DNA from: an uncultured Alphaproteobacteria bacterium
Lineage (GTDB): Bacteria; Pseudomonadota; Alphaproteobacteria; Rhizobiales; Xanthobacteraceae
Reading direction: 5' to 3'
DNA length: 64,000 nt
Assembly: GCA_963769365.1 (NCBI GenBank)
Contig: CAVYLU010000025.1
Location: 19,970-83,969, forward strand
The translations under genes and the position numbers were made by a program. Below, one piece after another: positions 5,439-64,000 of the stretch (the first letter of the stretch is position 1; each line of letters starts with the position of its first letter). A model generated the notes under the pieces. The model was not told where the DNA came from, did not search any database, and saw only the letters and a program-made list of their open reading frames with translations.

Positions 5439-5485
5439 GTCGTGCTCCTTGAGGCGTTGGGTTGATAAGGACGGCCGAAACGCAA

Positions 5486-5516
5486 GAAGGCCGCACTTTT
5501 TTCGGGTGCGGCCTTC
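5486..5516 (-). terminator. GC-rich hairpin, putative terminator after the 67-aa gene
   Basis: gaaggccgcac / gtgcggccttc gives an 11-bp perfect stem with a 9-nt T-rich loop. On the minus strand it is followed by ttgcgtttcgg. Confidence 0.45.
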
Positions 5517-5697
5517 TCGAAAACGTGGCTGATTTTCTTAAGTGTTCAGCGGTGTCGTCGGACATGGCGCAACCCGTCATCGTCGCGGGTGCGACGACGG
5601 AAGATGGCGCGGCGGTTGGTCCGATTCAGGATCATGGCGGACGCCCATACAGCCGAACGGCGGGCGTTGTCAAGCAGATCAAGAGTCGGACAGCGTC

Positions 5698-5901
5698 CTA
5701 ATTTGACGTCGGCTCATACCACACCGTTACAACGATGCAGGGATGCGTCCCCTCATTCGGCCTCTCAGCTACCGCCGTGACCACTGTTTCCGTTTTGATG
5801 ATGGTCGCCGAACCGAGACCGTTCAGCCACGCATTAATTTGCTCTTCGATCACGCGCGCCGTCGCGTCCATAAAGATTTTGACCTTCAGCGGTTTTGGCA
5901 T
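5698..5901 (-). CDS. small conserved hypothetical protein (67 aa)
   Basis: Clean ORF between rimO and the hairpin at 5486. Composition looks coding; no family recognised. Confidence 0.5.
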   Translation of the reverse strand: MPKPLKVKIFMDATARVIEEQINAWLNGLGSATIIKTETVVTAVAERPNEGTHPCIVVTVWYEPTSN

Positions 5902-12136: not shown

Positions 12137-13743
12137 CCGTGAACCAGATGACCACCCCGCCGCGGATCGAGATCATTCCGGCCAGTGCGCCATTCTCGGA
12201 GACCCAGCGCCTGTGGCTGAACGGTTTTTTGGTCGGAATGCTCGGGCTCGACGGAACGACGCCGCTGTCACCGGAGCAGACCAGCGCGATGCTGGGGCCG
12301 ACCGCCGGCGGCGATGATGGCGAAACGCCGTGGCACGACCAGACCATCCCGATTGCGGACCGCATGAAGCTAGCGGAAGGCCGTCCCTTGCGGCGGCGGA
12401 TGATGGCGGCGATGGCGCAGCAGGATTGCGGCCAGTGCGGCTATAATTGCAACGATTATTCCGACGCGATCGCAGGCAAAGGCGAGGCGCGGCTCAACCT
12501 CTGCGTCCCCGGCGGCAAGGAAACCGCACGGATGCTGAAGTCGCTGTATGAGGAGCTCGACAAGACGCCTGCCGCCGCGTCATCCGCGTCCGTTGCGGCA
12601 GCCGTTGCGGTATCCACCACGACGGCCGAACCCGGCCGTTCCCGCGACAATCCGGTAGCGGCAACCTTCGTGTCGCGCCACCTGCTCAACAAGCAAGGCT
12701 CGGAGAAAGAAACCTGGCACATCGACTTTGATCTCTCTGGCGCCGGCCTTGACTATGTCGTCGGCGACAGTTTTGGCATTTTTGCCAAGAACCATATCGG
12801 CCTGGTCGATCAGATCATCGCGCTGCTCGGCGCCTCCCACACCACGGAAGTGAGAGGCAAGACGTTGCGCGATGTGTTGTCGGAGGATGTTTCGCTGGCG
12901 CCCGCGCCGGACTCGCTGTTCGAGCTGTTCTCCTACCTCACCGGCGGCGCGCAGCGCGAGAAGGCGCGCGCGCTGGCGCAGGGCGAGGACCCCGACGGTG
13001 ACGCCGCCACGCTTGACGTCATGGCGGTGCTGCAGAAATTCGCCAATGTGCGCCCGCACCCCGAAGCGTTCGTCGAAGCGCTGGAGCCCCTGCAGCCGCG
13101 GCTTTACTCGATTTCGTCGTCGCACAATGCGACGCCCGGAAAACTGTCGCTGACCGTCGATTGCGTCCGCTACGTGGTGGGAAAACGCAAGCGCCTGGGA
13201 CTTGCCTCGACCTTCCTTGCCGAACGCATCAACCCGGGTGACGAAGTGAAGGTCTATGTGCAGAAGGCCCATGGCTTTGCGTTGCCGCCGGACCCGAAGA
13301 CGCCGATCATCATGATCGGGCCCGGCACCGGCATCGCGCCGTTCCGCGCCTTCCTGCTCGACCGCAAGGCGACCGGCGCGCAGGGAAAGAACTGGCTGTT
13401 CTTCGGTCATCAGCGCAGCGATTGCGATTTCTTCTATTCCGACGAACTCAACGCCATGAAGACATCGGGCCTATTGACGCGGTTGTCGCTGGCGTGGTCG
13501 CGCGACGGCACCAAGAAATTCTACGTGCAGGACCGCATGCGCGAAGTCGGCCGCGAATTGTGGACGTGGCTCGCCGAGGGCGCCAATATCTACATCTGCG
13601 GCGATGCCAAGCGGATGGCCAAGGATGTCGAACGCACACTCGTCGATATCGTCGCCCAGTTCGGGGCGCGTTCCACCGACGAGGCTGTGAGCTTCGTCGG
13701 GGAACTCAAGAAGAAGGGACGATTCCAGCAGGACGTTTATTGA
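12133..13743 (+). CDS. CysJ-like FAD/NADPH oxidoreductase lacking a flavodoxin domain, with a Cys-rich N-domain
   Basis: Start overlaps the nirA stop (ATGA). RLYSISSS (FAD), GPGTGIAPFRAF and YICGDAKRMAKDV (NADPH), C-terminus QQDVY. N-domain carries CGQCGYNC-X17-C. Confidence 0.8.
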   Translation: MTVNQMTTPPRIEIIPASAPFSETQRLWLNGFLVGMLGLDGTTPLSPEQTSAMLGPTAGGDDGETPWHDQTIPIADRMKLAEGRPLRRRMMAAMAQQDCGQCGYNCNDYSDAIAGKGEARLNLCVPGGKETARMLKSLYEELDKTPAAASSASVAAAVAVSTTTAEPGRSRDNPVAATFVSRHLLNKQGSEKETWHIDFDLSGAGLDYVVGDSFGIFAKNHIGLVDQIIALLGASHTTEVRGKTLRDVLSEDVSLAPAPDSLFELFSYLTGGAQREKARALAQGEDPDGDAATLDVMAVLQKFANVRPHPEAFVEALEPLQPRLYSISSSHNATPGKLSLTVDCVRYVVGKRKRLGLASTFLAERINPGDEVKVYVQKAHGFALPPDPKTPIIMIGPGTGIAPFRAFLLDRKATGAQGKNWLFFGHQRSDCDFFYSDELNAMKTSGLLTRLSLAWSRDGTKKFYVQDRMREVGRELWTWLAEGANIYICGDAKRMAKDVERTLVDIVAQFGARSTDEAVSFVGELKKKGRFQQDVY

Positions 13744-13919
13744 GTGCTTCCAATCTGCTTCAAATGCAGTCGAATAAAATTCTCGTTCGACTCCGGCGCA
13801 GAGAATTTTTGACTGGGAACGGAATCTATTGAAGGATTCCTATCGCTATTTCCGACGCCGCCTTGCATCCCGCTGTGAACAGTATTCCTTTGCTAGCGAT
13901 GGGGCGTTGGAGATCGACC

Positions 13920-14072
13920 ATGCGCGAGCTATCGGCGGAAGCCCGGATACACTTTTACGCGCGCGCCTTGTCCCGGCGAACCGGTGCGGGAATTCACACA
14001 GCCGCGCTCTACGGCGCGCTGGCGATCATTGCCGGCGTGGTGTTCGGCACGCTGTCGGTGCATCCGTTCTAA
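13920..14072 (+). CDS. possible small membrane protein (50 aa)
   Basis: ATG at 13920 lies 7 nt after GGAG. C-terminal hydrophobic helix ALYGALAIIAGVVFGTL. Weak support. Confidence 0.3.
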   Translation: MRELSAEARIHFYARALSRRTGAGIHTAALYGALAIIAGVVFGTLSVHPF

Positions 14073-14085
14073 GTTTGCAGGAATC

Positions 14086-14184
14086 GTAGGGTGGGCAAAG
14101 CGAAGCGTGCCCACCTTCCATTTTCGCCCAACATTTGAATTCTGGTTTGGTGGGCACGGCGCAAGTGCGCCTTGCCCACCCTAC
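14086..14184. repeat. REP-like element with two hairpin copies
   Basis: Hairpins ggtgggca-N10-tgcccacc (14092-14115) and ggtgggca-N16-tgcccacc (14149-14180). Outer inverted arms are gtagggtggg and cccaccctac. Confidence 0.6.
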
Positions 14185-14188
14185 AATT

Positions 14189-14959
14189 CTAAGCCGCTCG
14201 CTTGAACGGCGCCACGTCAATCCCGTTTTCCTTCAATGCCTGACGTACGCCGCGCGCGATATCAACCGCGCCGGGCGTGTCGCCGTGGATGCAGACGGTG
14301 TCGGTGCGCATCTTGATCACCTTGCCGGTGACCGAGACCACCGCGCCGTCCTGCACCATCCGCACCACGCGCTGCGCGATCTCTTTTGCATCGTGAAGAA
14401 CCGCACCGGGCTTCTTGCGCGAGACCAGCGAGCCATCGTCCTCATAGGCGCGATCGGCAAATACTTCGTGCACCATCGGCAGGTTGGCGCGTTCGCCGGC
14501 CTTCACTAGAATTGAATTGGCGAGCACGACGAACACCAGATTGGGATCGACCGCCTTGATGGCGTTTGCAATCGCCTGCGCGGTCGGCTCATCCTCGCAG
14601 GCGACATTGGAGAGCGCGCCATGCGCCTTGACGTGGGTGACCTTGTGGCCGGCCGCGATCGCGATCGCCTGCAGTGCGCCGATCTGGTAGGCGACCAGGT
14701 TTTCGATCTCGGAAGCCTTCATGCCGGGAAACGGCCGGCGGCCAAAGCCGTGCAGGTCGCGGTAACCGGGATGGGCGCCGATGCTGACGCCGCGCGCCTT
14801 CGCAAGCTCCACCGTCTTGCGCATGATATCGGCATCGCCGGCATGATAGCCGCAGGCGATGTTGACCGAGGTCGCAAGCTCGATCATGGCGGCATCGTTG
14901 CCCATTTCCCAGGGACCAAAACTTTCGCCGAGATCGCAGTTGAGATCGATAGTCGTCAT
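14189..14959 (-). CDS. pxpA: 5-oxoprolinase subunit A (LamB/YcsF family)
   Basis: [15 protein letters not shown]..., [20 protein letters not shown] at 14959 matches the family N-terminus. Confidence 0.9.
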
Positions 14960-15000
14960 GATGGTTGTCCGCTTTTGGCTCGAGGGGCTGTCTTGACTGC

Positions 15001-16023
15001 TTATTGCCACGTCGCGGCGTCGACCGCGCTGACGGCGTGGCCGGCGACATTAGCATGCTGCAGCGCCTCGATGTTGAGATCAAAGTTTTCGATTCCGCGC
15101 AGGCGGTCGGGCAGGCTGTGCAACAGGGTTGCGAACCTTCGCGCTTCCGCCTCCGCTCCCGCCATACCGACCGCCTTGAACCGGAAGCCGGTTCCAGGTG
15201 GGATTTGCGCGAAACGGCCGAAGTCGGCCGAAATCACGGTGGCGATCTTGGGGTATCCGCCGCTGGTGCCGCGGTCCGGCATCAGCACGATCGGCGCGCC
15301 GTTGCCGGGCACCTGGATGCTGCCGTTCACGGTGCCGTCGGAGACGATGTTGTGGCCGTGCAAATGCCTGATGACGGGGCCTTCCAGCCGGTAACCCATG
15401 CGATCGCTGGTTGCCGAAATCTTCCATTCACTGCCGAGGAAGAGCTTTTTGGCATCGTCAGAAAATTCATCGTCTTGCGGCCCCAGCACGACACGGATCG
15501 GTCCCTTCTCGGCAGCGGGAAGCTCGATACGCTGTTCGGCCGCGCCGCCTGCCGCCACCGTCTGCAATTCATCGCCGGCCTGCAACGGGCGCGGATAGGG
15601 ACTGCCGAGGCCTGCGCGCGCATTCACCGCCAGGCTTCCGAACATCGGCTCGCCCGCAATGCCGCCCTCGATCGCGAGATAGCTGAATGCGCCGCCGCGG
15701 GCAAAGCCGAGCGTCAGCGTCTCGCCATCTGCGAGTGTTGTCGACGTATCGATGGCGACCACACGTCCGGCGATATCGGCGTTGCGCGAAGCGCCCGCAA
15801 GCGCGATCCGCACCGCACCGCCGCGCGCGGTGAACGCCGCACCAAACGGGCCGATCTCGACGCCAGCGGCAAGCGACGCGTTGCCGACCAGCGTATTGGC
15901 GGCCGCAAGCGCGAGCCGATCCACCGCGCCGCTTGGGGTCAGACCGTAACGCTGCGAACCCTGCCGGCCGCCGTCCTGGACAGAGCTTGCCGGCCCGATC
16001 GAAGCCACGACAAGCTTGCTCAT
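15001..16023 (-). CDS. pxpC: 5-oxoprolinase subunit C (KipA / allophanate hydrolase subunit 2 family)
   Basis: 340 aa. SVQDGGR.G....G...SGA.D and [10 protein letters not shown] motifs. Overlaps the pxpB stop. Confidence 0.85.
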
Positions 16024-16763
16024 GACGCCATCAATTCGGCGACGATCTCGCCACTTTCGGCGGCCCGATCCTGCTCCGCAAACGTCTTGGCGTCGACCGG
16101 GACAAACGCAACGCGATCACCGGGCTCCAGCAGAAAGATGGGATCGCGGTGCAACTGATAGGTTCGCACGGCGGTGCGGCCCAACAGATGCCAGCCGCTG
16201 GGGCCGGCGAGACACTGCACGCCGGCCTGGACGCCGCCGATCGAGATGGTGCCGGCAGGCGTCAGCAGCCGCGGATCTTGCCGTCGCGGCATGTACAGGA
16301 ATTTGTCCAGTCCGCTGAGATAAGACCATCCCGGCGTGAAGCCGATCATGGCGACGCGATAGTCGCAGGCAACATGTCGCGCCACAACCTCCTCGGGTGT
16401 GGTTTGGAGCGCTCTGGCGACCGCTTCGAGATCGATGCCATGCTCGCCGCCATAGGCGACCGGAATGCGCCAGCGCCGGGATTTCATTGTCGGCGAAAGC
16501 GGGCGTTTTGCCAGCGAGAGGAGCCTCTCGCCCAAGGCATCGAAGCCGATTTGGACGGGATCATAATGCACAAGTAGCGACCGATAGGTCGGCACGGTCT
16601 CGATGACGCCCGAAACCGGCGCGCCATTTAGGGCGCGATCGAGCGCCAGCACGCGCTGGTTGGCGGCATCGTCGATATCGCGGGAAAATTCCACCGTGAT
16701 GGCGGCATCGCCACTCGGCAAAAGGCGGGGCGGGGAAAGGGTTACGGCCATGGCCTCATGCAC
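16020..16763 (-). CDS. pxpB: 5-oxoprolinase subunit B (KipI family)
   Basis: 247 aa; LPSGDAAITVEF..., TVPTYRSLLVHYDP, GFTPGWSYL. The start could be 16751. Confidence 0.85.
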   Translation of the reverse strand: MHEAMAVTLSPPRLLPSGDAAITVEFSRDIDDAANQRVLALDRALNGAPVSGVIETVPTYRSLLVHYDPVQIGFDALGERLLSLAKRPLSPTMKSRRWRIPVAYGGEHGIDLEAVARALQTTPEEVVARHVACDYRVAMIGFTPGWSYLSGLDKFLYMPRRQDPRLLTPAGTISIGGVQAGVQCLAGPSGWHLLGRTAVRTYQLHRDPIFLLEPGDRVAFVPVDAKTFAEQDRAAESGEIVAELMAS

Positions 16764-16965
16764 TTCTTCATGGCCCTCAAGCTAACTCATTTTGTTGCGG
16801 AGCGGAATTCGCTTCGCATAAAATGGCCCTGCAAATTCAATAAATTAATCAACGGGTGACCGATAAGATGATCCGACGAATCCCGCCACGCATGGCCGCC
16901 CTTGACGCGCTCGTCCCGCGCCGCAAGATGCGAGCCGCCAATCCCTCCCGGAGCCAGCTTTCCAG

Positions 16966-17664
16966 ATGTCCCTGACCCCCGACGCCATCGAGACGCTTTC
17001 GCGCATCTCCACCGCCACCATCACCACGGTTCTGCTCAAGAAGGGACTGCGAAACGTCTGGATGCGCGGGACCAAGCCGCTGCGGCCCGGACAGAAGCGG
17101 CTGGTCGGGCCGGCCTTCACGTTACGCTTCGTGCCGGCGCGCGAGGATCTGGCGACGCCGGAATCATGGTCGTCGCCGATATCCACCCGCACGGCGATCG
17201 AGGCGATGCCGGCGGGCTGCATCGCCGTGGTCGACGCCATGGGCATCACCAATGCCGGCATCTTCGGCGATATCTTGTGCGCACGGATGGTCAAGCGCGG
17301 GGTCGCGGCGCTGATCACCGACGGCGTAGTGCGCGACGTCGAGGGCGTGCTCGGCACCGGCCTTCCGGTCTGGTGCGACGGGTTTGCCGCGCCGCCTTCG
17401 GTCGCGGGCCTTACCTTTGTCGGCTGGGGCGAGCCGATCGGCTGCGGCGGCGTCGCGGTATTTCCGAACGACATCGTTGTCACCGACGAGGACGGCGCGG
17501 TGCTGATCCCGCAAGCGCAGCTCGACCATATCCTGACTGAGGGGCCGGAGCAGGAACGGATGGAAGCCTGGATCGTCAACGAAGTGAACAACGGTGCTGC
17601 GTTGCCCGGCCTCTATCCCATGAATGCCGAGACCAAGGCGCGTTACGCGGCTTCCAAGAAATAA
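16966..17664 (+). CDS. RraA-family protein (ribonuclease E inhibitor RraA / HMG-aldolase-like)
   Basis: LSRISTATITTVLLKKGL..., GDILCARMVKRGVAALITDGVVRD are typical of the RraA/MenG-like fold. Confidence 0.8.
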   Translation: MSLTPDAIETLSRISTATITTVLLKKGLRNVWMRGTKPLRPGQKRLVGPAFTLRFVPAREDLATPESWSSPISTRTAIEAMPAGCIAVVDAMGITNAGIFGDILCARMVKRGVAALITDGVVRDVEGVLGTGLPVWCDGFAAPPSVAGLTFVGWGEPIGCGGVAVFPNDIVVTDEDGAVLIPQAQLDHILTEGPEQERMEAWIVNEVNNGAALPGLYPMNAETKARYAASKK

Positions 17665-17708
17665 CCGGCCAATCGACAGCGCAAATAACACGGAAAGGGA
17701 GACGACCC

Positions 17709-18116
17709 ATGGATATCCATCTCGCCGGCTCGCGGCCGACGCGCCGCGCACCGAAGGAATATTTCACCGGTACGGTCTGGCAGGATCCGATCATCGCAAC
17801 CGCAGCACCGGCGCGGCTAGCCTCGAATCGCGTATCCTTCGAGCCGGGTGCGCGAACGGCATGGCATACGCATCCCCTTGGACAAACGCTTTATGTGATC
17901 TCGGGCGTCGGCCGGGTTCAGGCCAAGGGCGGACCCGTCAGAGAAATCCGGCCGGGCGATGTCGTCTGGATTCCGCCGAACGAAAAACATTGGCACGGGG
18001 CCTCGCCGACCAACGGCATGACCCACATTGCGATGCAGGAATCGCACAATGACAGTTACGTCACCTGGATGGAGTACGTGTCCGACGCGGAATATTCCGC
18101 AAAGCTGGGAGAATAG
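17709..18116 (+). CDS. cupin domain protein
   Basis: FEPGARTAWHTHPLGQTLYVISGVG...GDVVWIPPNEKHWHGA (two-motif cupin signature). Confidence 0.75.
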   Translation: MDIHLAGSRPTRRAPKEYFTGTVWQDPIIATAAPARLASNRVSFEPGARTAWHTHPLGQTLYVISGVGRVQAKGGPVREIRPGDVVWIPPNEKHWHGASPTNGMTHIAMQESHNDSYVTWMEYVSDAEYSAKLGE

Positions 18117-18204
18117 CCGGGGTCTCGTGACGGCCGGCATTAACAGGATGTACTTGGGAGTGGCTCTGTTGAGCCGCTTCACGGGCTCAAGGTAGAATAC
18201 TCCG

Positions 18205-18727: not shown

Positions 18728-19084
18728 TCAGATCCGCTGCGCTACCCAGGTGCCCGAGCACAAGGCGGCGCGCCAGGTGCCCGATCCGGACGCACCGGCG
18801 AGATGACCGAAGCCGACAGCCCGCTTGATTCCGCTGATCAGGGTGACGCTGATACTGCCGGCTTCGGCAACGCGGCCTGAAGCGGCGACCATCGCGTTGT
18901 TCGAGACGACCTGGCCGTTGCTGATTCCGATCGAGACGCTGGTGCCGGCGTTGCAGGCCGAGTTCGACGAAGCGATCTGGACGCTCCAGTTACCGTCGAA
19001 TGTCGCGGCCGTGGCCGGTGTGGCGGCCGGCAGACCCAGAAGAAGAATGCGGCTGGCGAAAATTAGCTTCTTGAAATGTCCCAT
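18728..19084 (-). CDS. small secreted protein (hypothetical)
   Basis: ATG at 19084 gives signal peptide MGHFKKLIFASRILLLGLPAATPATA. The mature part has 2 Cys. Confidence 0.55.
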   Translation of the reverse strand: MGHFKKLIFASRILLLGLPAATPATAATFDGNWSVQIASSNSACNAGTSVSIGISNGQVVSNNAMVAASGRVAEAGSISVTLISGIKRAVGFGHLAGASGSGTWRAALCSGTWVAQRI

Positions 19085-19321
19085 GACGTGCCCCCTGCTG
19101 TTCGGACAGGGCAACATCACACGGCGCGTCGCCGGAGAATGTGATGGGAGTCACGCGTGAGAGTCACTCTTTGGGAGTCACTCGGGCACCGTGAAAGCGA
19201 CCCGGTGAACCGATTGCGGTCCGGACACGACGTGACGCCGCGCACACTTCCGAGCCGAGGCGCAGCCAAAACGCCCCGCCGCCAGAGCGGGGCGTTTCTG
19301 CTTGGGGACGCTGCCGGCGTG

Positions 19322-20158
19322 CTAATTCACGCGGGTCCAGGTCTGGCCACCGCAGAACATGCCGCCAAACGCGCAACCTTGGACGCGCAGGGTATCGGTG
19401 CCCTTCATCGCAATCGTCGAATCGTAGGTAGAGCCGGAGTTCGGATCGAGGATCCGCCCGCTCCACATGGAATCCTTGCCGGGCTTCATGTTGATCAGAA
19501 CCTGCTCGCCGTTCTTGTTCGATTTCGTGTCGACCGAGTAGCCGCAGAGATTGGCGCCGCATTGCTCGATCCGGACCTTGCCTTCCTTCTCCTCCGTCAA
19601 CCAGATGCCGAGTGGTGAATTCGGGTCATGAATTGCGGCGGGCGCGGGAGGGGCGGGAAGGGCTGCGGCCGCCGGCGGCAGTGGCGGAGGAACGGCGGCG
19701 ACGGCCGGGGCCGGCGCAGGCCTTGGCGGGGGAGCCGCATCCTGCTGAAGCGGTGGCGCGGGAGCCGGAAGCGGAGGCAGTGGCGGCAACGGAGGCGGCG
19801 CTGCAGCGGTATCTGCCGGCGCGTTGTTGGCGGTCGTGGTCGCAGGCTCCGGCAGCGGTGGCGGGATTGCCGCCGCGGGCGGAGGCGCCGCCTGCTCAGC
19901 CGGCGCGGGAGCCGGGCTCGGCGTTTGCGGATCGGCCTTCGCGTCTTGCGGGGTCTGTTGCTTGCGCGACTTGTCGCTGTCCTGATCGCCGCGTGCGCGC
20001 TTGGCTCGCCGTCCGGTGTTGTCGTAGACACCAGGGATGGAAATGGTGCCACGGTCTGGATCGATACGAATCGTGTGGCCGCCATATTCGAAGGTGTATT
20101 GAGCCTGTGCGGCGGTGCTCGCCAGCACAAACGCGGCGATAGCCAACAGCTTCTTCAT
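19322..20158 (-). CDS. secreted proline-rich protein with a DUF2147-like C-terminal domain
   Basis: Signal peptide MKKLLAIAAFVLASTAAQA, a long PPPLPP/APAPA low-complexity linker, and a C-terminal GIWLTEEKEGKVRIEQCGANLCG...GRILDPNSGSTY...CGGQTWTRV. Confidence 0.75.
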   Translation of the reverse strand: MKKLLAIAAFVLASTAAQAQYTFEYGGHTIRIDPDRGTISIPGVYDNTGRRAKRARGDQDSDKSRKQQTPQDAKADPQTPSPAPAPAEQAAPPPAAAIPPPLPEPATTTANNAPADTAAAPPPLPPLPPLPAPAPPLQQDAAPPPRPAPAPAVAAVPPPLPPAAAALPAPPAPAAIHDPNSPLGIWLTEEKEGKVRIEQCGANLCGYSVDTKSNKNGEQVLINMKPGKDSMWSGRILDPNSGSTYDSTIAMKGTDTLRVQGCAFGGMFCGGQTWTRVN

Positions 20159-20443
20159 CTTGAACCTCCTGAGCGCAGATCCCTGTCGGACCCTAGGCGT
20201 CAGCCGTTTTGCGCAACGTGATCCAGATCACTTTCAATCAATAAGTCGCAAGCTGGCCGGATTGGTTGAACACGGCTTCGCCAGCCAGTTTAAGGGCGGA
20301 CCTCTGCCGCGGTCAATTTCGGGAATTGCGCGCTTTCTGCGATAAAACCACTTATTGGAACCAGCACCATGTCTTCTCTGCGAAGGCATTCGATGACAGC
20401 CTATCGCGCCGGCCGGCCGCGGGCGAGTTGGAGAACCGAAACC

Positions 20444-35341: not shown

Positions 35342-35568
35342 GTAACGCCCCCCAGCGAACGCACACTGCACCCGGGGCGAACTGTTTCGCACCTTGCGAG
35401 CCGGCACAATAGCGCTGCGTCGTCTTGGGGCGCTTGAACCGAAATTAGCTGTGGGTTTCGTCATTGGGCGGCGCGCAAGCGCGCGCTCCGCCCGACTGTG
35501 AACCAGCTCACATCCCTTAATGGGCCTTGCGGGCTATACCGAAGCCCGTGCAAATACGGGTGGCCAAC

Positions 35569-35781
35569 ATGAAGAACAGGGTCGACTTCCTAACCATTGT
35601 AACTGCGATCTGCGTCGCGGCTTATGTCGCCATCATGCTCGACCATGTCGCCGATGTTGATCTCGGCTTCTCAGGCGAGCAAATCCGCAACACCGCCGTG
35701 ATCGCCGCAAGCGTCATGGCCATGCTGATGGCCATCGATTTCTTCGGCAAAAAGTCGAGCAAGACCGACCAGCCGCGATAG
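35569..35781 (+). CDS. small two-TM membrane protein (70 aa)
   Basis: MKNRVDFLTIVTAICVAAYVAIML...AVIAASVMAMLMAIDFF. Confidence 0.4.
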   Translation: MKNRVDFLTIVTAICVAAYVAIMLDHVADVDLGFSGEQIRNTAVIAASVMAMLMAIDFFGKKSSKTDQPR

Positions 35782-57525: not shown

Positions 57526-59028
57526 GTGAGTAACAGTCCCCTTGATCTGAAAACAACTCAACACGTGAGCAATCGCGTCGGACGCCGCGATGTGCTGAGC
57601 GGCAGTTCATTGCTCGCTGCTTCGGTACTGATGGGCGGACCATTTGTGCCTGCAACCAGCGAGCCGGCCAATGCTCAGGCGGCGGCTGCAACGTCTAGCG
57701 CTGTCCCTGCGGATTTGATCGGCGACATCGCGACCAGTGCCTATATCTACGCCTATCCGCTCATTTTCATGGAAATGACGCGCCGGATCGGCACCAATGT
57801 CGCCAACATCAGGACGTTCGCCAGGGCGCCGATGAACCAGTTTGCAAATGTGCCAGCATTTCCTGACGCCACTTTCACGGATGTAACGCGGCCGAACGTC
57901 GACACGCTCTATTCGCTAATGTGGTTCGACGTATCGCAGGAGCCGCTGCTGATCAGCGTGCCGGATTCGGGCGGCCGCTTCTATCTGCTCCAGATGTGCG
58001 ACATGTGGACTGACGTGTTCGACAGCCCGGGCAAGCGAACGACCGGGACCAGCGGGCAGGTGCTGGCGATCGCCGGGCCAGGCTGGCAAGGCCAGCTTCC
58101 TGCGGAAGCTACGCTCATTCATAGCCCCACGGCGATCGGCTGGATCATCGGACGTACCCAGACCAACGGCAAGGCCGACTACGACGCGGTGCATAAATTC
58201 CAGGCCGGACTGATCGCCACGCCGCTCAGCCAATGGGGCAAGCCGTACCAGCCACCGGCCGGCAGCATCAATCCCGATTGGGACATGGCCACACCGCCCA
58301 TCGCGCAGGTGGAAAAGCTTAGTCCAGCTGCATATTTCTCGCTCTTCGCAGAACTCACCGCGCTCAACCCGCCGCATGCGAACGATTACCCGATCCTCCA
58401 CCAGATGCGGCGCATCGGGATCGAGCCGGGCAAGCCCTTCGCGTTCGATAGGGTATCACCGGAGATTCAGCGCGCTCTGACCGAAGCTGGGCCTGCCGCG
58501 CTGAACACCATCAAGGCAAGGCTTGCGAAAGCAGGCGTCGCCAAGACAGGATGGCGTACCAATCTCACCGCAATTGGCACTTACGGCGCGGATTATTTGA
58601 ACCGGGCGGGGATCGCTTATGCCGGTATCGGTGCCAACACGATCGAAGACGCCGTCTATCCGACGGCGTTCACCGATGCTGAGGGCAAGCCGTTCAGCAG
58701 CGACAGCCGTTACGTCCTGCATTTCAACAAGGACCAGATACCGCCGGTACGCGCCTTCTGGTCGCTCACGATGTACAACGAAAAGCAGCTCCTCGCGGCC
58801 AATCCGATCGACCGCTTTGCCATTGGCGATCGCGACAAGCTCGCATTCAATCCCGACGGCTCGCTCGATCTCTACATTCAACGCGAGTCGCCCGGCAGGG
58901 ACAAAGAGTCGAATTGGCTGCCGGCCCCGGCGAGTGGTTCCTTCACGATGAACATGCGACTCTATTGGCCGAAGCCTGAGGTGCTCGACGGCACCTGGTC
59001 ACCTCCGGGGGTGACGCAGGTGAAATGA
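57526..59028 (+). CDS. DUF1254/DUF1214 domain protein with a Tat-like signal
   Basis: GTG at 57526 lies 5 nt after GGGAGAG. RRDVLSGSSLLAAS; YIYAYPLIFMEMTRR, FYLLQMCDMWTDVF, WLPAP..GSFTMNMRLYWPK. Confidence 0.8.
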   Translation: MSNSPLDLKTTQHVSNRVGRRDVLSGSSLLAASVLMGGPFVPATSEPANAQAAAATSSAVPADLIGDIATSAYIYAYPLIFMEMTRRIGTNVANIRTFARAPMNQFANVPAFPDATFTDVTRPNVDTLYSLMWFDVSQEPLLISVPDSGGRFYLLQMCDMWTDVFDSPGKRTTGTSGQVLAIAGPGWQGQLPAEATLIHSPTAIGWIIGRTQTNGKADYDAVHKFQAGLIATPLSQWGKPYQPPAGSINPDWDMATPPIAQVEKLSPAAYFSLFAELTALNPPHANDYPILHQMRRIGIEPGKPFAFDRVSPEIQRALTEAGPAALNTIKARLAKAGVAKTGWRTNLTAIGTYGADYLNRAGIAYAGIGANTIEDAVYPTAFTDAEGKPFSSDSRYVLHFNKDQIPPVRAFWSLTMYNEKQLLAANPIDRFAIGDRDKLAFNPDGSLDLYIQRESPGRDKESNWLPAPASGSFTMNMRLYWPKPEVLDGTWSPPGVTQVK

Positions 59029-59668
59029 GGTTCTGTGCCGAGACCGACGACATGGCCGAGTTGGCGACTGGCGCCAATCCGAACGGCAGCGGATCACCAT
59101 CGCGGAGGTCAGCTAAGGGTCTTGGTTGCGTGATAACGCTCGTTTTCACGCAGCCAGGGTCAAAAACGGTCCTGACGCCATTGAAATGGGATGTCTGCGT
59201 TACCCCCGATAGCGACCAAACTGCGGACACCGCGCGGGAGGTCCGTTTCGTGCCTGAAGAACATTCTTCCCTCCTCCAACTAGCTGATCTGATAGGATAA
59301 CGGTCAGCATTCGGGCTCGCCAGGACGATACGTTTTGACCCCGGTCCCGCCTCTCGGCTTGGGGCGCATTGACGGGCCGTGTCCATGGTGTTCATCATAT
59401 CTGGCCGGCATCGCTACTTAGCCGCGCTAACCTGTTGGAGTGGCAGCCATGACGGAGAAATTCGTAAGGGGATTTGTCATAGTGGCTTTGGTTGTCATGG
59501 TGATGCTTGCCTACGCCCAGAAGCATGAGGGGTGCTTACGCGGGCGCTCGCTCGAAACCTTCAAGCCGTGCGGATCAGTTGGCGTTGATATTTAGCGCTA
59601 GCTCGATTTAGCGGCACTTCTAAGTTCGATCGAAGTGGCTCCTGTATTGACCACTTAATCGGAGAGTT

Positions 59669-60010
59669 TTGATGAGAACCTTCAAGCCGTTGGTGCTGTT
59701 AACACTTCTCGTTGCACAACCGGCCTCGACACAGGCTGCGGATTTAAACGGAGCTTGGACGATCGACGCCTCGGCCTGCGGTAAGGTGTTTACCAAGGAG
59801 AATAACCAGCTTGCGTTCAAGCAAGATGCTGATCTCTACGCGGGCGGTCTAATCGTCCGGGGAAAGCAAATAACCGGAACATTTCAAGAGTGCGCTGTCA
59901 AATCGTTGCATGATGACGGACCGACTTGCGTCTATCCTCTCCACCGGAATAGCCGTTGTCGCTTTGATTGGGTCTCTTCGTCGGGGGCAGATGATTTTCG
60001 CGTGAAATAA
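59669..60010 (+). CDS. small secreted protein, C-terminus possibly corrupted
   Basis: Signal MMRTFKPLVLLTLLVAQPASTQA followed by DLNGAWTIDASACGKVF... The last 30 aa are Arg/Cys-rich and overlap the convergent ORF 59932..60336. Confidence 0.4.
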   Translation: MMRTFKPLVLLTLLVAQPASTQAADLNGAWTIDASACGKVFTKENNQLAFKQDADLYAGGLIVRGKQITGTFQECAVKSLHDDGPTCVYPLHRNSRCRFDWVSSSGADDFRVK

Positions 60011-60336
60011 ACAATTGCACTATCAATGAACAAAGGTTGGCTAATGTCGCAGACAGGATCATCTCCGCTGTCAGAAGCTAGTGTCGATTGCCGAAGTTTT
60101 CGCAGTATTTCATCAGCTTCACTTATTTTTTCACGCCATTTTGCTTCAACGCCGTAGGCCTTGAAGCTTTCCATCTGCGGCAAATAATGGAAGAGCGCCA
60201 CAATAACAAACAGCCCAGCAACCAACGATCCGGCTGCAACATGGTCTATCAAAGCTAATCCTACGGCAATCAAAAGAAGGATCGCTGCACAGCAGATCAG
60301 TATCCACCGCACAATAAAATTCCAAATTGAGGACAT
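59932..60336 (-). CDS. two-TM membrane protein (134 aa, hypothetical)
   Basis: MSSIWNFIVRWILICCAAILLLIAVGLALIDHVAAGSLVAGLFVIVALF.. followed by a charged helical tail. AT-richer codon usage. Confidence 0.45.
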   Translation of the reverse strand: MSSIWNFIVRWILICCAAILLLIAVGLALIDHVAAGSLVAGLFVIVALFHYLPQMESFKAYGVEAKWREKISEADEILRKLRQSTLASDSGDDPVCDISQPLFIDSAIVYFTRKSSAPDEETQSKRQRLFRWRG

Positions 60337-61293
60337 TCAGTCTTGCCTCCTTCACGGTGTCAGCAACTGCTCTCGATGTTGGGCGTAATGCGAGCGCTGA
60401 ACCATAGCAAGCCGGCGCCCAAGCCCGGGCCGCGCCGCAAGCGCGCAAAGGCTTACAGGATCGTGCGGCGAGCGGCGTCGGGCCACGTCAACCGCGCTGG
60501 TCCGTGGTCCGGCACGGTCCCGCCTAACATCTTGCCTCCAGGCCCCAAGGACCGGACCGTGCTTTACGAATCCAGCCGTTCAATCAGGTGCCACAGGCTC
60601 CGATCCCGTGCCGTCGAGCCTGGTACCACCCCGTCTCCCTGGATGACTCCCAGATCGTCCGGAAAGACGCCGCCCATGCGTTCGCCGGACAAATTCAAAC
60701 CCTCATTTTGGGTCGCCGTTGGTCACTATCGAAGACCGTCCGTCGCATGCGACTCCGCGCGCCGATCGTTACCCCCGTAGTTACCCTTAATCAAATTTGT
60801 CATAACGATCGCCGCAGCCTAGGAGCACCTAAGTCATTGATCTATTGGCGGAAGGAGTGGGATATCAATCATGGCAAGAAACCCATGCGCCGCAGCAAAT
60901 TCATCGATCGCGATAGACTCAGGGTTTGGTCAAGGGTATGGCACCTGTCTGAAGGGGCGCCAGCCAGCGGGAGAGGGGCGCCTGCGCGGTGTTTTTGAGG
61001 GAGCGGCACCCCTCTTGCGCCCGCCAGCGGGGCGCCTCTCAGCGGACGCCGTAAGGACTCGACTTGCCGCCTTCTGCCGCCGGGGGCAGCGTGTCGGACG
61101 CCCGCCTTTTCCTGATTCGTCCTCCTTAAGGAGAACCCGCCAGTGACGCGACCCGCCATGAATGGAGCCCCCGACCAAATCCAAGCGGTGAAGCAAATGT
61201 TGGCAGGAGGTCTTATCCACGCTGACGATCCTGGCATGAGTAGCGGTCGCCGCCATGGTAATGCGCTCACCCTCAAAATGTTTACTTCTGATG

Positions 61294-61494
61294 TCAGTTT
61301 GGGACCCAAGTATAACCTTTCTGTCCCTCTTTCATAACGTAGTATCCTTTTCCGGTGCCGTCGCCCCAGGATATAAAGGTCTGCCCGCCATTTGAGCCAT
61401 AGCCAATTCCGAGGCCGGGGGCACCTCCCGAAACGAGGTCAAGTTCGTTCGTGGTCAACTCATCGCGCGTTTCTTTAGTCCTTTGCAAGATCAT
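61294..61494 (-). CDS. double-glycine-leader peptide B (66 aa; putative class II microcin/bacteriocin-like precursor)
   Basis: AAGGAG-N6-ATG. Leader MILQRTKETRDELTTNELDLVSGG; core APGLGIGYGSNGGQTFISWGDGTGKGYYVMKEGQKGYTWVPN. Confidence 0.6.
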   Translation of the reverse strand: MILQRTKETRDELTTNELDLVSGGAPGLGIGYGSNGGQTFISWGDGTGKGYYVMKEGQKGYTWVPN

Positions 61495-61517
61495 CTCTTT
61501 CTCCTTCAGGTTGATGT

Positions 61518-61700
61518 TTAGTTCGGGACCCACGTAAGACCATTCTTTCCTTCCGTCATCACCCAGGTTCCGCCGTTGTCTGCCCATTGTATTTTGGCCA
61601 TCCCCTTCGATGAGTGTGAATAGTCAATTCCGATGTTGGGGGAGCCTCCTGACGCAAGGCCGAGTTCGTCGATTGTCAGTTCATCGTTGCGTTTTTCCAT
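61518..61700 (-). CDS. double-glycine-leader peptide A (60 aa; paralog of peptide B)
   Basis: AAGGGA-N6-ATG at 61700. Leader MEKRNDELTIDELGLASGG; core SPNIGIDYSHSSKGMAKIQWADNGGTWVMTEGKNGLTWVPN. Confidence 0.6.
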   Translation of the reverse strand: MEKRNDELTIDELGLASGGSPNIGIDYSHSSKGMAKIQWADNGGTWVMTEGKNGLTWVPN

Positions 61701-61780
61701 GGTCTGTCCCTTCAAGGTTGATGCTCACGCCTCCTACGGTGAAGCGCACGGGTATCAATCAGAGAAAGGGGATCGCTACC

Positions 61781-61794
61781 GTGATCTGGATCAC
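61781..61794. promoter_or_regulatory. perfect 14-bp palindrome upstream of the peptide operon
   Basis: GTGATC-TG-GATCAC, about 80-95 nt upstream of the peptide A start codon. Candidate operator. Confidence 0.3.
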
Positions 61795-62711
61795 GCGGCC
61801 CGCTTCGAGCTCACATCCGGCCAAGCGTGCGACGGCCAAAGTCCACGCCGATCCATGAACTGGAGCGGTACATGCGGTGTCGGGACTGCTCGGAGGTTAG
61901 GGGTTATCCCTATAAGCGCAGCCATCTGATAGCGCTGCGGACAACGAAAATATCAGCGAGCGATCCGCCCTCAACGTGGTGGCCGGGCGAACGATGAAAC
62001 CGATACCAAGAAGGCCAACCCGCACGAGCGTCGCGCTCGTCGCAACGGCTGCTTTTTTAATGGCTTCCCCGGTTTTCGCGGCGGAGAACCGGCATCCCGC
62101 GCATTGTTGGTCTTCCCCTGAACCGACCTGAGGTGGCGTATTCAGTGCCCGTTTCGGAGCGGCACCATTGTGAACTGAGTTGCCCTGGTCTCGCAAGGCG
62201 ACAAAGCCTGCTTGCTCCGAGCGCGGCGGCTAGGAAGGTGCGTCTGTGCCCAGTTTGGTCCCAAAGGCAAACGCTCCTGAGAGGTGAGGTTTGACCGGGA
62301 CTGAACCACTTTAGGCAAGGGTGAGTAAGCATAACGATTTCTCCGCCATTCTACGCTCCGCGGCGCTCTATGGTGAGCGACCAATCGTAGCCACAAAATG
62401 CGCCATGATCTCACCAATGCCATTCCTGATTGGCCGCTTCTGGCGCGAAGCGGCCGTTCAGCCGAGATGCCAACTTCAGCTAAGTGCCGATAGTGTTGCA
62501 AAAGTCGTTTTGCTGAAGGTGTCAAAAATTCTGAGGGCCGTAGGCGCGGTTTTCGTGTAGAAACCTGACGGACCTCATCGCCTCACGATAAACTCATTGG
62601 CGACTTCGGTAACGCGACTGAGGTTATCCGAATCGTCGATCGCTTCGCGTTTTAAGGTTTCACTAAAAATGCGGACTGATGCAACTTTCGACTTATCTGC
62701 CAGTACCTCCA

Positions 62712-63098
62712 TTAGCTCTCCCGGAAGACGGCCTCGATGTTGTTGCCGTCTGGATCCAGAACGAACGCCGCGAAGTAGCCAAGGGGATAGTTGCCGGAGC
62801 GGAGCCCCGAGCCACCATTATCTTGGCCGCCAGAAGAAATCGCAGCGCGGTGAAAGTCCTCGACCTCGCCGCGGCTGCCCGCTCGAAAGGCGGTGTGCTG
62901 CTTCGTTCCATGTGGGTGAAACACATCGATCCAGAAAATCGGGTAGCTCACGCCATAGCCGACCCCGCCAAGTCCCGGATCGTTGCCGCCGCGGGCCACG
63001 GCGAAGGTTTTGGTGATGCGCGCTATCGGCTTAAGCCCTACAAATTGTCCGAAACTGGACAGAAGCATGCGGCGCGCGGCAAATCCACTTAGCACCAC
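62712..63098 (-). CDS. VOC family protein (glyoxalase-like), start uncertain
   Basis: C-terminal half is typical (..HTAFRAGSRGEVEDFHRAAISSGG...YFAAFVLDPDGNNIEAVF). GTG at 63098 gives about 128 aa; ATG at 63068 is an alternative. Confidence 0.55.
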   Translation of the reverse strand: MVLSGFAARRMLLSSFGQFVGLKPIARITKTFAVARGGNDPGLGGVGYGVSYPIFWIDVFHPHGTKQHTAFRAGSRGEVEDFHRAAISSGGQDNGGSGLRSGNYPLGYFAAFVLDPDGNNIEAVFRES

Positions 63099-63205
63099 CG
63101 ATTGCCGGAACGGCTGAATCCAACTAGCTTCTGCACAGTGCCGGGGCCTGCAGACCGGGCGCGCAATGTTCCTCGTCGCCAACAACGCAATGTCGGGAGG
63201 GCAAT

Positions 63206-64000
63206 ATGGGGCGGAGATACCAAAGTATCCTCGAAACAATCGGGAATACACCGGTAGTGCGAATAAATCGTTTGGCACCGCAGGGCGTGAACCTGTTCGT
63301 AAAAATTGAAGCCTTCAACCCACTCGGTTCGGTGAAGGATCGATTGGCTCTCGGGGTGATCGAGGCCGCCGAAAAGTCGGGAGAGCTCAAGCCCGGCCAG
63401 ACGGTCATAGAGGCGACCAGCGGGAATACCGGGATTGGCCTTGCCATGGTTTGTGCGGCCAAGGGGTACCCGCTTGTGGTCACCATGGCGGAGCCATTCA
63501 GCGTCGAGCGACGCAAGCTCATGCGCTTCCTCGGAGCGAAAGTCATCGTAACTCCCGCCGCCGAACGAGCTGTGGGCATGATCACCAAGACCATCGAGCT
63601 TGCCAGGGCGCATGGCTGGTTCATGACCCGGCAGTTTGAGAACGAAGCAAATCCCGATTTTCATTCGCGCACAACGGCGCGCGAGATAATCGACGATTTT
63701 GCCGGACAGCGGCTGGATTATTGGGTTACTGGTTACGGAACTGGCGGAACACTAAAGGGCGTCGCGCGGGTGCTTACCAAAGAGCGTCCCGAAACGAAGA
63801 TTATAGTTTGCGAGCCGGGAGATGCGCAGCTGCTGGGAAGTGGCATCGCGCAGTCGCGGAACTCGGACGGTACACCGGCGGCACCACATCCGACATTCAA
63901 GCCTCATCCAATGCAAGGCTGGACGCCGGATTTTATCCCCAAGCTCACCGACGATGCCGTCGACATGAAAGTTATCGATCGCATCCTGCCGATCTCTGGC
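63206..64000 (+). CDS. cysK: cysteine synthase A (O-acetylserine sulfhydrylase), 3' end outside the window
   Basis: ATG at 63206 lies 5 nt after GGAGGG. NPLGSVKDRLA (PLP lysine), TSGNTGIGLAMV, GTGGTLKG. No stop before the window end. Confidence 0.9.
   Translation, partial: MGRRYQSILETIGNTPVVRINRLAPQGVNLFVKIEAFNPLGSVKDRLALGVIEAAEKSGELKPGQTVIEATSGNTGIGLAMVCAAKGYPLVVTMAEPFSVERRKLMRFLGAKVIVTPAAERAVGMITKTIELARAHGWFMTRQFENEANPDFHSRTTAREIIDDFAGQRLDYWVTGYGTGGTLKGVARVLTKERPETKIIVCEPGDAQLLGSGIAQSRNSDGTPAAPHPTFKPHPMQGWTPDFIPKLTDDAVDMKVIDRILPISG

Follow-up and report, generated by a model that had tools for sequence, protein, structure and literature searches.

Two tandem double-glycine-leader peptide genes of an uncultured alphaproteobacterium, with a CRP-type promoter box and a candidate exporter

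The stretch of DNA analysed here, called the window throughout, is the 64 kb between positions 19,970 and 83,969 (forward strand) of contig CAVYLU010000025.1 in assembly GCA_963769365.1, from an uncultured alphaproteobacterium of the Xanthobacteraceae. It contains two adjacent mini-genes, pepA and pepB, that had been noticed from the sequence as a pair of peptide precursors with double-glycine (GG) leaders of the microcin or bacteriocin kind, with no exporter or immunity gene in sight. What are such peptides, how might they be switched on and how could they leave the cell? pepA and pepB are real coding genes under selection with a conserved double-glycine junction, and the genus Bradyrhizobium has a complete exporter of the NHLM ('nitrile hydratase leader microcin') type that is physically linked to peptides with the same type of leader and promoter box. 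The reading of the whole that we favour, with moderate confidence, is that the pair constitutes a mobile two-gene operon, controlled by a regulator of the CRP family, for exported and probably unmodified peptides. Double-glycine exported peptides are of an already known kind; what is new is the family of cores with its fold, a cassette that brings its own promoter along with the peptides, and the CRP-type box that connects numerous peptide genes, unlinked to each other, across Bradyrhizobium and Nitrobacter. Comparison loci are labelled L001 and so on, and members of the peptide family P0012 and so on.

The pepA and pepB genes and their peptide family

pepA (61518–61700, minus strand) runs from an ATG at 61700 to a stop at 61518 and encodes 60 amino acids (aa) plus stop, and pepB (61294–61494, minus strand), with its ATG at 61494 and stop at 61294, encodes 66 aa plus stop. 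Reading of the sequence together with the listing of open reading frames (ORFs) confirms that the two minus-strand genes are spaced by 23 nt, as reported. Both had been credited with a strong Shine-Dalgarno sequence, which holds for pepB (AAGGAG, 61501–61506, minus strand, 6 nt spacer to the ATG), but the GAAGGG of pepA (61708–61713, minus strand, 7 nt spacer) is only moderate; both ribosomal binding sites were read from the sequence. The region of this site in pepA is duplicated together with the gene (repeat D5). Gene callers give pepB as a 97-aa ORF overlapping pepA, and the exact protein sequence of pepA is already present in NCBI/ENA. Elsewhere in the window the amidase is identical to WP_422283936.1, and the PrkA cluster has only Bradyrhizobium among its named members.

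The pepA precursor consists of the 19-aa leader MEKRNDELTIDELGLASGG (61644–61700, minus strand) followed by the 41-aa core SPNIGIDYSHSSKGMAKIQWADNGGTWVMTEGKNGLTWVPN (61521–61643, minus strand), which begins SPNIGIDY, ends TWVPN and has a predicted mature mass of 4446.1 Da (monoisotopic). That of pepB consists of the 24-aa leader MILQRTKETRDELTTNELDLVSGG (61423–61494, minus strand) followed by the 42-aa core APGLGIGYGSNGGQTFISWGDGTGKGYYVMKEGQKGYTWVPN (61297–61422, minus strand), beginning APGLGIGY and likewise ending TWVPN, with a predicted mature mass of 4397.1 Da. Cleavage is predicted after the GG, a junction that is kept across the family. The full precursors (6.5 kDa for pepA and 7.1 kDa for pepB, with cores of 4.4 kDa each) are 53% identical, and the cores are free of Cys, close to neutral and hydrophilic (grand average of hydropathy -0.6), bearing out the description of two paralogous Cys-free cores with a common end. 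Both leaders share the pattern ELTxxELxLxSGG and follow the double-glycine leader rule that had been claimed for them, with Gly at -1 and -2, Ala (pepA) or Val (pepB) at -4, Leu at -7, Glu at -8 and Leu at -12; these positions were checked individually. The general GG-leader consensus (hydrophobic residues at -4, -7 and -12, an acidic residue at -8, a length of 15–30 aa) is present in both leaders, and its positions are invariant or nearly so over the 24 members of the family alignment. A six-frame scan of the window found no GG-leader ORF of this type besides pepA and pepB.

Neither peptide has a match in Pfam. A HMMER search with a profile of the two paralogues against 1.84 billion representatives gave 15 matches, about 10 of which are peptides of 60–70 aa that carry the junction ELTIDELxLVSGG and the core motif GIGIxY..DG..I.W.D..G.G.W.M..G..G..W.P. 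The ten-sequence profile, run against 5.8 billion clusters, found 23 clusters, nearly all from JGI or ENA metagenomes; four of the 23 carry the JGI name 'bacteriocin-like protein', and two bear NCBI names, both from one metagenome-assembled genome (MAG) of Bradyrhizobium sp. P0017 is the orthologue of pepA with 97% identity. An indexed protein search with pepB only returned no cluster besides its own, and tblastn against 72,556 plasmids gave no match to the family. In the 24-sequence alignment the junction is nearly invariant down to about 35% identity, and homologues keep it in profile searches and alignment alike; none of them is without the leader, except that one 34-aa fragment spans the core only.

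Ratios of nonsynonymous to synonymous substitution (dN/dS), estimated by the Nei-Gojobori method, are 0.04–0.28 for the leader and 0.13–0.64 for the core between lineages, showing leaders under strong purifying selection and cores that are constrained between lineages. Between tandem paralogues the dN/dS of the core is about 1.0 (1.05 for pepA against pepB, 0.99 for the pair in L065), and the leaders are identical or highly conserved despite this. The L065 pair (1372–1575 and 1631–1828) has 72-nt leaders that are 100% identical, with no synonymous changes, and cores with a dS of about 0.59 and a dN of about 0.58. A conserved leader in front of what looks like a rapidly diversifying core is the pattern in L065, and it points to gene conversion of the leader or to swapping of cores behind a fixed leader.

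An AlphaFold2 model of pepB, built on the family alignment, predicts a four-stranded beta-meander for residues 31–66 with a predicted local distance difference test score of 85–91 (strands 31–35, 38–44, 50–55 and 62–65), and the leader is modelled as a short helix of low confidence. By homology the core of pepA should also be a beta-meander. Foldseek comparison of the pepB model with the PDB gave a best E of about 2 and only generic beta-meander, SH3 or propeller-blade matches, and a search of PDB sequences with the family profile gave nothing significant, the best bacteriocin match being leucocin A with E=1. Pfam, NCBIfam, the PDB and Foldseek did not tie the core to any verified microcin or bacteriocin. 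The claim of two paralogous GG-leader precursors of an unrecognised core family holds, and pepA and pepB resemble the GG-leader precursors of class II microcins with no demonstrable membership in any named core family. They belong to a rare and previously unnamed family with a predicted beta-rich core that has no known structural relative. Weak matches of the core profile to repeats of giant proteins (E 1e-4 to 1e-6) were considered as homology to Fn3 and rejected; these repeats are Fn3-like or ChitinaseA_N units, and the matches were judged to reflect a shared beta-hairpin pattern.

The cassette and its CRP-type promoter box

A pepB relative of 98% identity is found on three metagenome contigs, and the only region that these have in common with the window is 61257–61807 (minus strand), at 97% identity, with flanks unrelated to those of the window. 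This 551-bp cassette comprises the promoter box, the 5' untranslated region (5'UTR), pepA, pepB and a 3' tail of about 35 nt, and it begins 13 nt upstream of the box. The span first proposed for the pair includes both genes, but the conserved unit is wider (61257–61807) and includes the promoter box at 61781–61794. A second unit of 709 bp, that of P0012, is 99% identical between two unrelated flanks and also holds a second, unrelated GG-leader gene. Both cassettes contain peptide genes only. Other family members form tandem pairs in L065 and in L004 of the Bradyrhizobium MAG, and members are located beside a resolvase and an integrase (L004) or an insertion sequence (IS) transposase (L066).

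The box is the CRP-type palindrome GTGATCCAGATCAC (GTGA-N6-TCAC, 61781–61794), centred 87 nt upstream of the ATG of pepA. When 28 distinct boxed promoters are anchored on it, they show GTGAY-N4-RTCAC, a spacer of about 20–24 nt and then a -10-like nnTAnn, which for pepA gives the putative -10-like element TGATAC (61752–61757, minus strand). The centre of the box is about 30 nt upstream of TGATAC and about -42 from the putative transcription start, predicted near 61745 on the minus strand; a distance near -40 to -42 is the geometry of class II CRP/FNR-dependent promoters, and the pepA box corresponds to the palindrome TGTGA-N6-TCACA near -41.5, counted from that putative start. In independent family members (T)GTGA-N6-TCAC(A) is located 85–135 nt upstream of the ATG, and some carry two boxes about 38 nt apart.

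The box is not confined to this family. A degenerate DNA pattern for EL[T/A][I/T][D/N]EL..[V/A]SGG (about 39 bits, with about one chance match expected) occurs at 55 places in 185,579 species genomes, the majority of them in Bradyrhizobium, Nitrobacter and MAGs of alphaproteobacteria. Many unrelated cores follow these 55 leaders, among them 30-mers that are hydrophobic, 45-mers that are helical, peptides rich in Gly and, in Nitrobacter, a beta-rich 39-mer; the pepA/pepB core is not one of them. Of 98 GG-leader ORFs, some of them in near-duplicate loci, 34 have an exact box in the 200 nt upstream, where at most 2.7 would be expected. All boxed ORFs are in loci of alphaproteobacterial type, and none is among the gammaproteobacterial, cyanobacterial or Firmicute matches. 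In tandem pairs and clusters the box precedes the first and not the second gene, which fits operons. The original prediction had called GG-leader peptides unfamiliar in Bradyrhizobium-type bacteria; this does not agree with the 55 matches, which fall mostly in this clade, but stands in so far as no paper on GG-leader peptides or such a regulon in the clade was found, in a literature search that was incomplete and whose negative outcome is weak evidence. The label 'bacteriocin' is already given by annotation pipelines to the exporter and to some members of the family.

By its class II distance from a -10-like element, the box resembles those of the CRP/FNR class in general. CgrA, a cGMP-dependent CRP homologue of the alphaproteobacterium Rhodospirillum centenum, footprints on TGTGA-N6-TCACA, with the same half-sites and spacing as the pepA box and in a host of the same class; that paper describes no link of CgrA to exported peptides (PMC4681086).

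Four boxes are found in the window against 0.61 expected, a number reached in none of 100 shuffles, and the three additional ones are all intergenic. The second (19141–19154) has its centre 63 nt upstream of the ATG at 19084 and precedes a 118-aa protein with a signal peptide (18728–19084, minus strand); the third (20218–20231), identical in sequence to the peptide box and centred 66 nt upstream of the ATG at 20158, precedes a 278-aa Pro-rich secreted protein (19322–20158, minus strand); and the fourth (35498–35511), centred 64 nt upstream of the ATG at 35569, precedes a 70-aa membrane protein with two transmembrane segments (35569–35781, plus strand). The three genes behind them are probably co-regulated with the peptides in the same regulon, and the 70-aa protein is a remote candidate for immunity.

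The cassette lies in DNA that had been described as decayed and of lower GC. There are indeed few long ORFs, and the local GC content is 56–58%, but the drop is not dramatic compared with the 60–64% of the left half of the window. In 59000–64000 the largest ORFs (62712–63278, 63089–63664 and 59932–60336) have no Pfam matches, in keeping with accessory DNA that is variable or decaying. At the cassette ends neither terminal repeats (inverted or direct) nor attC-like sites were seen, the window has no tRNA gene, a scan for sigma-70 promoters and terminators gave nothing informative around the cassette, and Rfam (E up to 1) had no match over 60500–62500. A structured leader RNA was rejected; RNAalifold on the family 5'UTR gave -0.35 kcal/mol with no covariation.

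One family member, P0020, is present as a single copy between comEC and lexA (7062–7250 in L005, and also in L006–L008), in a housekeeping stretch with the order gltX-glnS-comEC-[peptide]-lexA-moeA-moaC-trpCDG. Many Bradyrhizobium GG-leader genes with unrelated cores (L012, L016, L017, L020, L027, L031, L039, L040, L049 and L063) have in the 5'UTR a conserved motif, GGCGGGAATRGTCCC, which comes after the -10-like element and before the ribosomal binding site, about 30–60 nt upstream of the ATG. A related form in Nitrobacter is GGAGGGAATGGTTC, and the pepA/pepB family does not have the motif; Rfam searches on the 5'UTRs of other peptide loci, the motif included, gave nothing relevant. Nitrobacter and its relatives (L028, L030, L032, L037, L043 and L057) have tandem GG-leader pairs with beta-rich cores of 39–42 aa ending in W-x-P-K, for example TVHTEVRKTTLIDVNGKGILAIGTVSIDGGPALPSAEWIPLK followed by EVMAQGTVIKISMDKGTLTVGYISTGGGPTLPYAKWQPK, with a box before the first gene only, and these pairs may be distant analogues of the pepA/pepB family. 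A group II intron (RF02003 with 101 bits and RF00029 with 42 bits, at 1882–2021 and 3280–3382) is located about 1.3 kb downstream of the boxed GG-leader gene in L031, an alphaproteobacterial MAG, as a sign of DNA rich in mobile elements.

A candidate exporter encoded elsewhere

The window was reported to lack an exporter, and none was found in it. Screening all six frames for Walker A, LSGGQ and the C39 motif gave one 368-aa ORF with motifs of an ATP-binding cassette (ABC) protein and no C39 motif, and a Pfam scan of the window ORFs, some of which have no Pfam match at all, gave no exporter either. Nor was an adjacent exporter, a maturase or a recurring small membrane protein present at any family locus examined. 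Among the 55 pattern loci only one, in Moraxella, adjoins an ABC ORF with a C39 motif, and within the 8 kb viewed per locus an ABC-motif ORF is present in almost no Bradyrhizobium or Nitrobacter locus, with two exceptions. An unlinked exporter is the normal organisation in this clade and not an anomaly, which explains why the exporter is missing from the window.

In L013 a boxed peptide whose leader, ending in LELTIDELQEVSGG, is nearly identical to the pepA/pepB type lies directly downstream of two NHLM-type genes, ABC1 and ABC2. ABC2 scores 865 bits against TIGR03797 (cutoff 709), and ABC1, partial at the edge of the locus, 593 bits. Several Bradyrhizobium genomes, among them JYMT SZCCT0180 and other strains of the SZCCT series, have ABC2 homologues of 71–79% identity under the name 'NHLP bacteriocin export ABC transporter'. 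The whole operon is seen in L071 and L073 of Bradyrhizobium, in the order HlyD (TIGR03794, 297 bits, cutoff 156), C39 ABC1 (TIGR03796, 1061 bits, cutoff 853) and ABC2, and the C39 domain of ABC1 keeps the catalytic Cys, His and Asp. Seven GG-leader mini-genes flank the L071 and L073 operons, some with a box upstream, and the double boxes of L073 have the same spacing as in the pepA/pepB family. JYMT SZCCT0180, to which L073 belongs, and other SZCCT strains also hold unlinked GG-leader peptides. Within the genus the NHLM-type exporter is thus complete and is physically linked to peptides with this leader and box type, and by analogy pepA and pepB would be exported by such a system.

The exporter operons also adjoin genes for cyclic nucleotides. 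In L071 a 181-aa protein that binds cyclic nucleotide monophosphates (cNMP) is encoded right after ABC2 (12923–13468), and L073 has a cNMP-binding patatin (13453–15306), a CHASE2 nucleotide cyclase (15321–17435) and a regulator with cNMP_binding and HTH_Crp_2 domains (17428–18126, also given as 17431–18126). This neighbourhood suggests that the peptide regulon is under cNMP control.

Mechanism and possible roles

In the reading that we prefer, a regulator of the CRP/FNR family, possibly responsive to a cyclic nucleotide, would bind the box at about -42 and activate a class II promoter, giving a bicistronic mRNA and the two precursors of 6.5 and 7.1 kDa. The amphipathic leader ELTxDELxLVSGG would be recognized by an unlinked type I secretion system of the NHLM type, composed of the C39-peptidase ABC protein, the second ABC protein, the HlyD adaptor and an outer-membrane channel, and cleavage after the GG should release the 41-aa and 42-aa cores, each then folding as a four-stranded beta-meander. 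The products are expected to be unmodified, at 4446.1 and 4397.1 Da, because the cores are free of Cys and no maturase gene is located beside any family locus. pepA and pepB would then be one of many Bradyrhizobium cassettes with a common box, leader type and exporter.

That the mature peptides antagonise related soil bacteria, like a bacteriocin or microcin, is the least certain step and is put forward tentatively. It is favoured by the type of leader and exporter, the rarity of the family, the occurrence of the cassette in unrelated contexts, the diversifying cores and the bacteriocin-like cores that co-occur with it, and the consistent absence of an immunity gene from the mobile cassette calls for caution. 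Class II microcins are smaller than 10 kDa, have a double-glycine signal of 15–24 aa and are exported by a C39-peptidase ABC protein, a membrane fusion protein and an outer-membrane channel, and an immunity gene is a defining component of these five-component systems (PMC9746304). pepA and pepB, as precursors below 10 kDa with a GG signal, fall within this size class and share the leader consensus LxxxELxxIxGG with the class II microcins of the Enterobacterales (V, also called colicin V, L, N, PDI and S). They differ in having a core dissimilar to all of these, neutral, hydrophilic and predicted to be a beta-meander, in having no linked genes for immunity, a peptidase-containing ABC transporter (PCAT) or a membrane fusion protein, and in an alphaproteobacterial host whose likely exporter is of the two-ABC NHLM type and not CvaAB.

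Several observations weigh against the operon of exported peptides or its role as a toxin. The exporter is known from other Bradyrhizobium genomes, and the source genome is covered here by the 64-kb window only. No Crp-family gene is among the window ORFs tested, and the Crp-family protein near the exporter in L073 has the recognition helix SRPKINE, unlike the RETVGR of CRP, so that this regulator is not assigned to the box. The copies between comEC and lexA (L005–L008) have no GTGA-N6-TCAC box within 200 nt, and this copy is so differently regulated or silent. In an NCBIfam scan pepB reaches 14.0 bits with the bacteriocin_sig model TIGR01847, which has only 15 positions, below the cutoff of 15.7, and pepA has no match to it. 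The neutral, hydrophilic cores differ from typical membrane-active bacteriocins. No immunity candidate is present inside either cassette or consistently beside family members, in line with the claim that no immunity gene is nearby, and for pepA and pepB a toxin role is a proposal made from sequence.

Among the alternatives, the one that survives best, though unlikely, is that the peptides are non-toxic structural or adhesive components of a biofilm matrix or surface assembly, secreted by the same PCAT route in the manner of EbfG1-4 and PteB. In Synechococcus elongatus PCC 7942, EbfG1-4 are small proteins with a GG motif whose genes are co-transcribed under control of an extracellular cue; a C39 transporter secretes them, no immunity gene is involved, and they are needed for biofilm formation and not for killing (PMC4997328). 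Like them, pepA and pepB are small paralogous GG-motif proteins, and the absence of an immunity gene from every cassette, the hydrophilic, Gly- and aromatic-rich cores predicted to be all beta, and the other boxed genes of the window, whose secreted and envelope products suggest an envelope or secretome programme, would all suit such a role. However, a family as very rare and patchy as this one, with 23 clusters, and one that moves as a cassette, would be unusual as a structural component, and a dN/dS of about 1 for the core between paralogues is better accounted for by an arms race. EbfG and PteB have no sequence relationship to pepA and pepB, function in a cyanobacterial biofilm, and in the case of EbfG are encoded next to the transporter.

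It is improbable that the two are extracellular signalling peptides, processed by a PCAT as are the pheromones ComC, BlpC and plantaricin A of Gram-positive bacteria. A GG leader with PCAT export is common to peptide pheromones, as is well established, and both the apparent control by a signal-responsive promoter of CRP type and the cNMP-signalling genes that adjoin the exporter could be taken in its favour; but no sensor kinase or receptor gene is linked at any locus examined, a folded beta domain of 41–42 aa is large for a pheromone, and many different and fast-diverging cores in one regulon are hard to square with specific pairs of signal and receptor. In the streptococcal Blp and Com bacteriocin cocktails, and in the class IIb two-peptide bacteriocins, multiple GG-leader cassettes, often in tandem, share one promoter element and one PCAT. 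The tandem GG-leader cassettes under a common promoter element resemble pepA and pepB in this respect (cf. PMC12943804). The differences are that Blp and Com are Gram-positive systems with direct-repeat promoters bound by response regulators, that immunity genes accompany their peptides, and that two-peptide bacteriocins consist of helical GxxxG peptides, whereas pepA and pepB are paralogous beta peptides.

Still less probable is that pepA and pepB are precursors of peptides made by the ribosome and modified after translation (RiPPs), with cores modified by enzymes encoded elsewhere as for NHLP/Nif11 peptides or prochlorosins. By its NCBIfam names the exporter family TIGR03794/TIGR03796/TIGR03797 is defined around modified NHLP/Nif11 peptides, the NCBIfam scan gave a weak match of the pepA leader to the CCRG-2 RiPP model, and precursors that are scattered, keep their leader and vary in the core resemble the prochlorosins. 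Against this, the cores have no Cys, none of the family or exporter loci examined has a maturase beside it, the core is predicted to fold alone as an ordinary beta-sheet, and the leader of 19–24 aa compares with an NHLP/Nif11 domain of about 70–80 aa, the models of which (TIGR03793 and TIGR03798) matched neither peptide in the NCBIfam scan with E up to 10. The likeness to NHLM systems lies in the exporters, which in L013 (with a partial ABC1) and Bradyrhizobium match TIGR03794, TIGR03796 and TIGR03797, and in one exporter serving many precursors; the difference lies in a short leader of class II type and no linked modification enzymes. That the genes are decaying remnants or chance ORFs with a fortuitous GG motif, as the lower GC and few long ORFs of the surrounding 5 kb and the lack of Pfam matches might suggest, is effectively refuted by a family kept to about 35% identity with an invariant junction, purifying selection on the coding sequence, a conserved promoter box and ribosomal binding sites, and a cassette intact at 97% identity in another context.

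Of the readings that go beyond the pair, the preferred operon of exported peptides may extend to an undescribed cyclic-nucleotide/CRP regulon in Bradyrhizobium, Nitrobacter and relatives, in which scattered mobile cassettes, each made of a box, a GG leader and a core that varies, would all supply one C39 exporter of the NHLM type. pepA and pepB would then represent a new class of independently folding beta-meander mini-proteins, being either a bacteriocin without a dedicated immunity gene or a new extracellular effector; this wider proposal is speculative and we hold it with more reserve than the toxin role. If the peptides are toxins they would give a new bacteriocin fold from a neglected phylum, and if not they would extend the small set of uses of double-glycine export other than for toxins. 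Among soil bacteria the bradyrhizobia are dominant, and they are the main inoculants of soybean; the competition between inoculant and resident strains limits the performance of inoculants. The literature searched has no characterised system of secreted peptides, and no characterised ribosomal peptide antagonist, from bradyrhizobia. The value is less in the pair itself than in the picture of a regulon, all of it still computational, which gives a model open to testing: it names the promoter box, the leader and the exporter, predicts the exact masses of the products and lists cores that are co-regulated. The box is also a simple handle in genome mining for exported peptides that are missed or mis-called, such as pepB as a 97-aa ORF.

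Unrelated GG- or GA-leader mini-genes often accompany family members, as in L001 (3838–4008, minus strand), L067 (605–778), L069 (1221–1394) and L004 (6432–6620 and 6682–6846). One has a leader ending LDKVSGG followed by the core LVVISIIGILIGQLLPK and its own box; others are LAAISGG with LSSAFASAIKAIGDGAAQVARKG, LEAVSAG with LLATTLSNLANMRHEML and LEGVVGA with TDLLGFISDCLRTM. The co-occurring hydrophobic or amphipathic GG-leader cores are of the type seen in class II bacteriocins. In L004 of the Bradyrhizobium MAG the cluster of four peptides is followed by the resolvase and a fragment of the integrase, and ahead of it, on the opposite strand, is a gene (5306–5698, minus strand) with a match to Rap1a (PF18602), a family of immunity proteins for type VI effectors; this neighbour may be immunity-like, or it may be there by coincidence.

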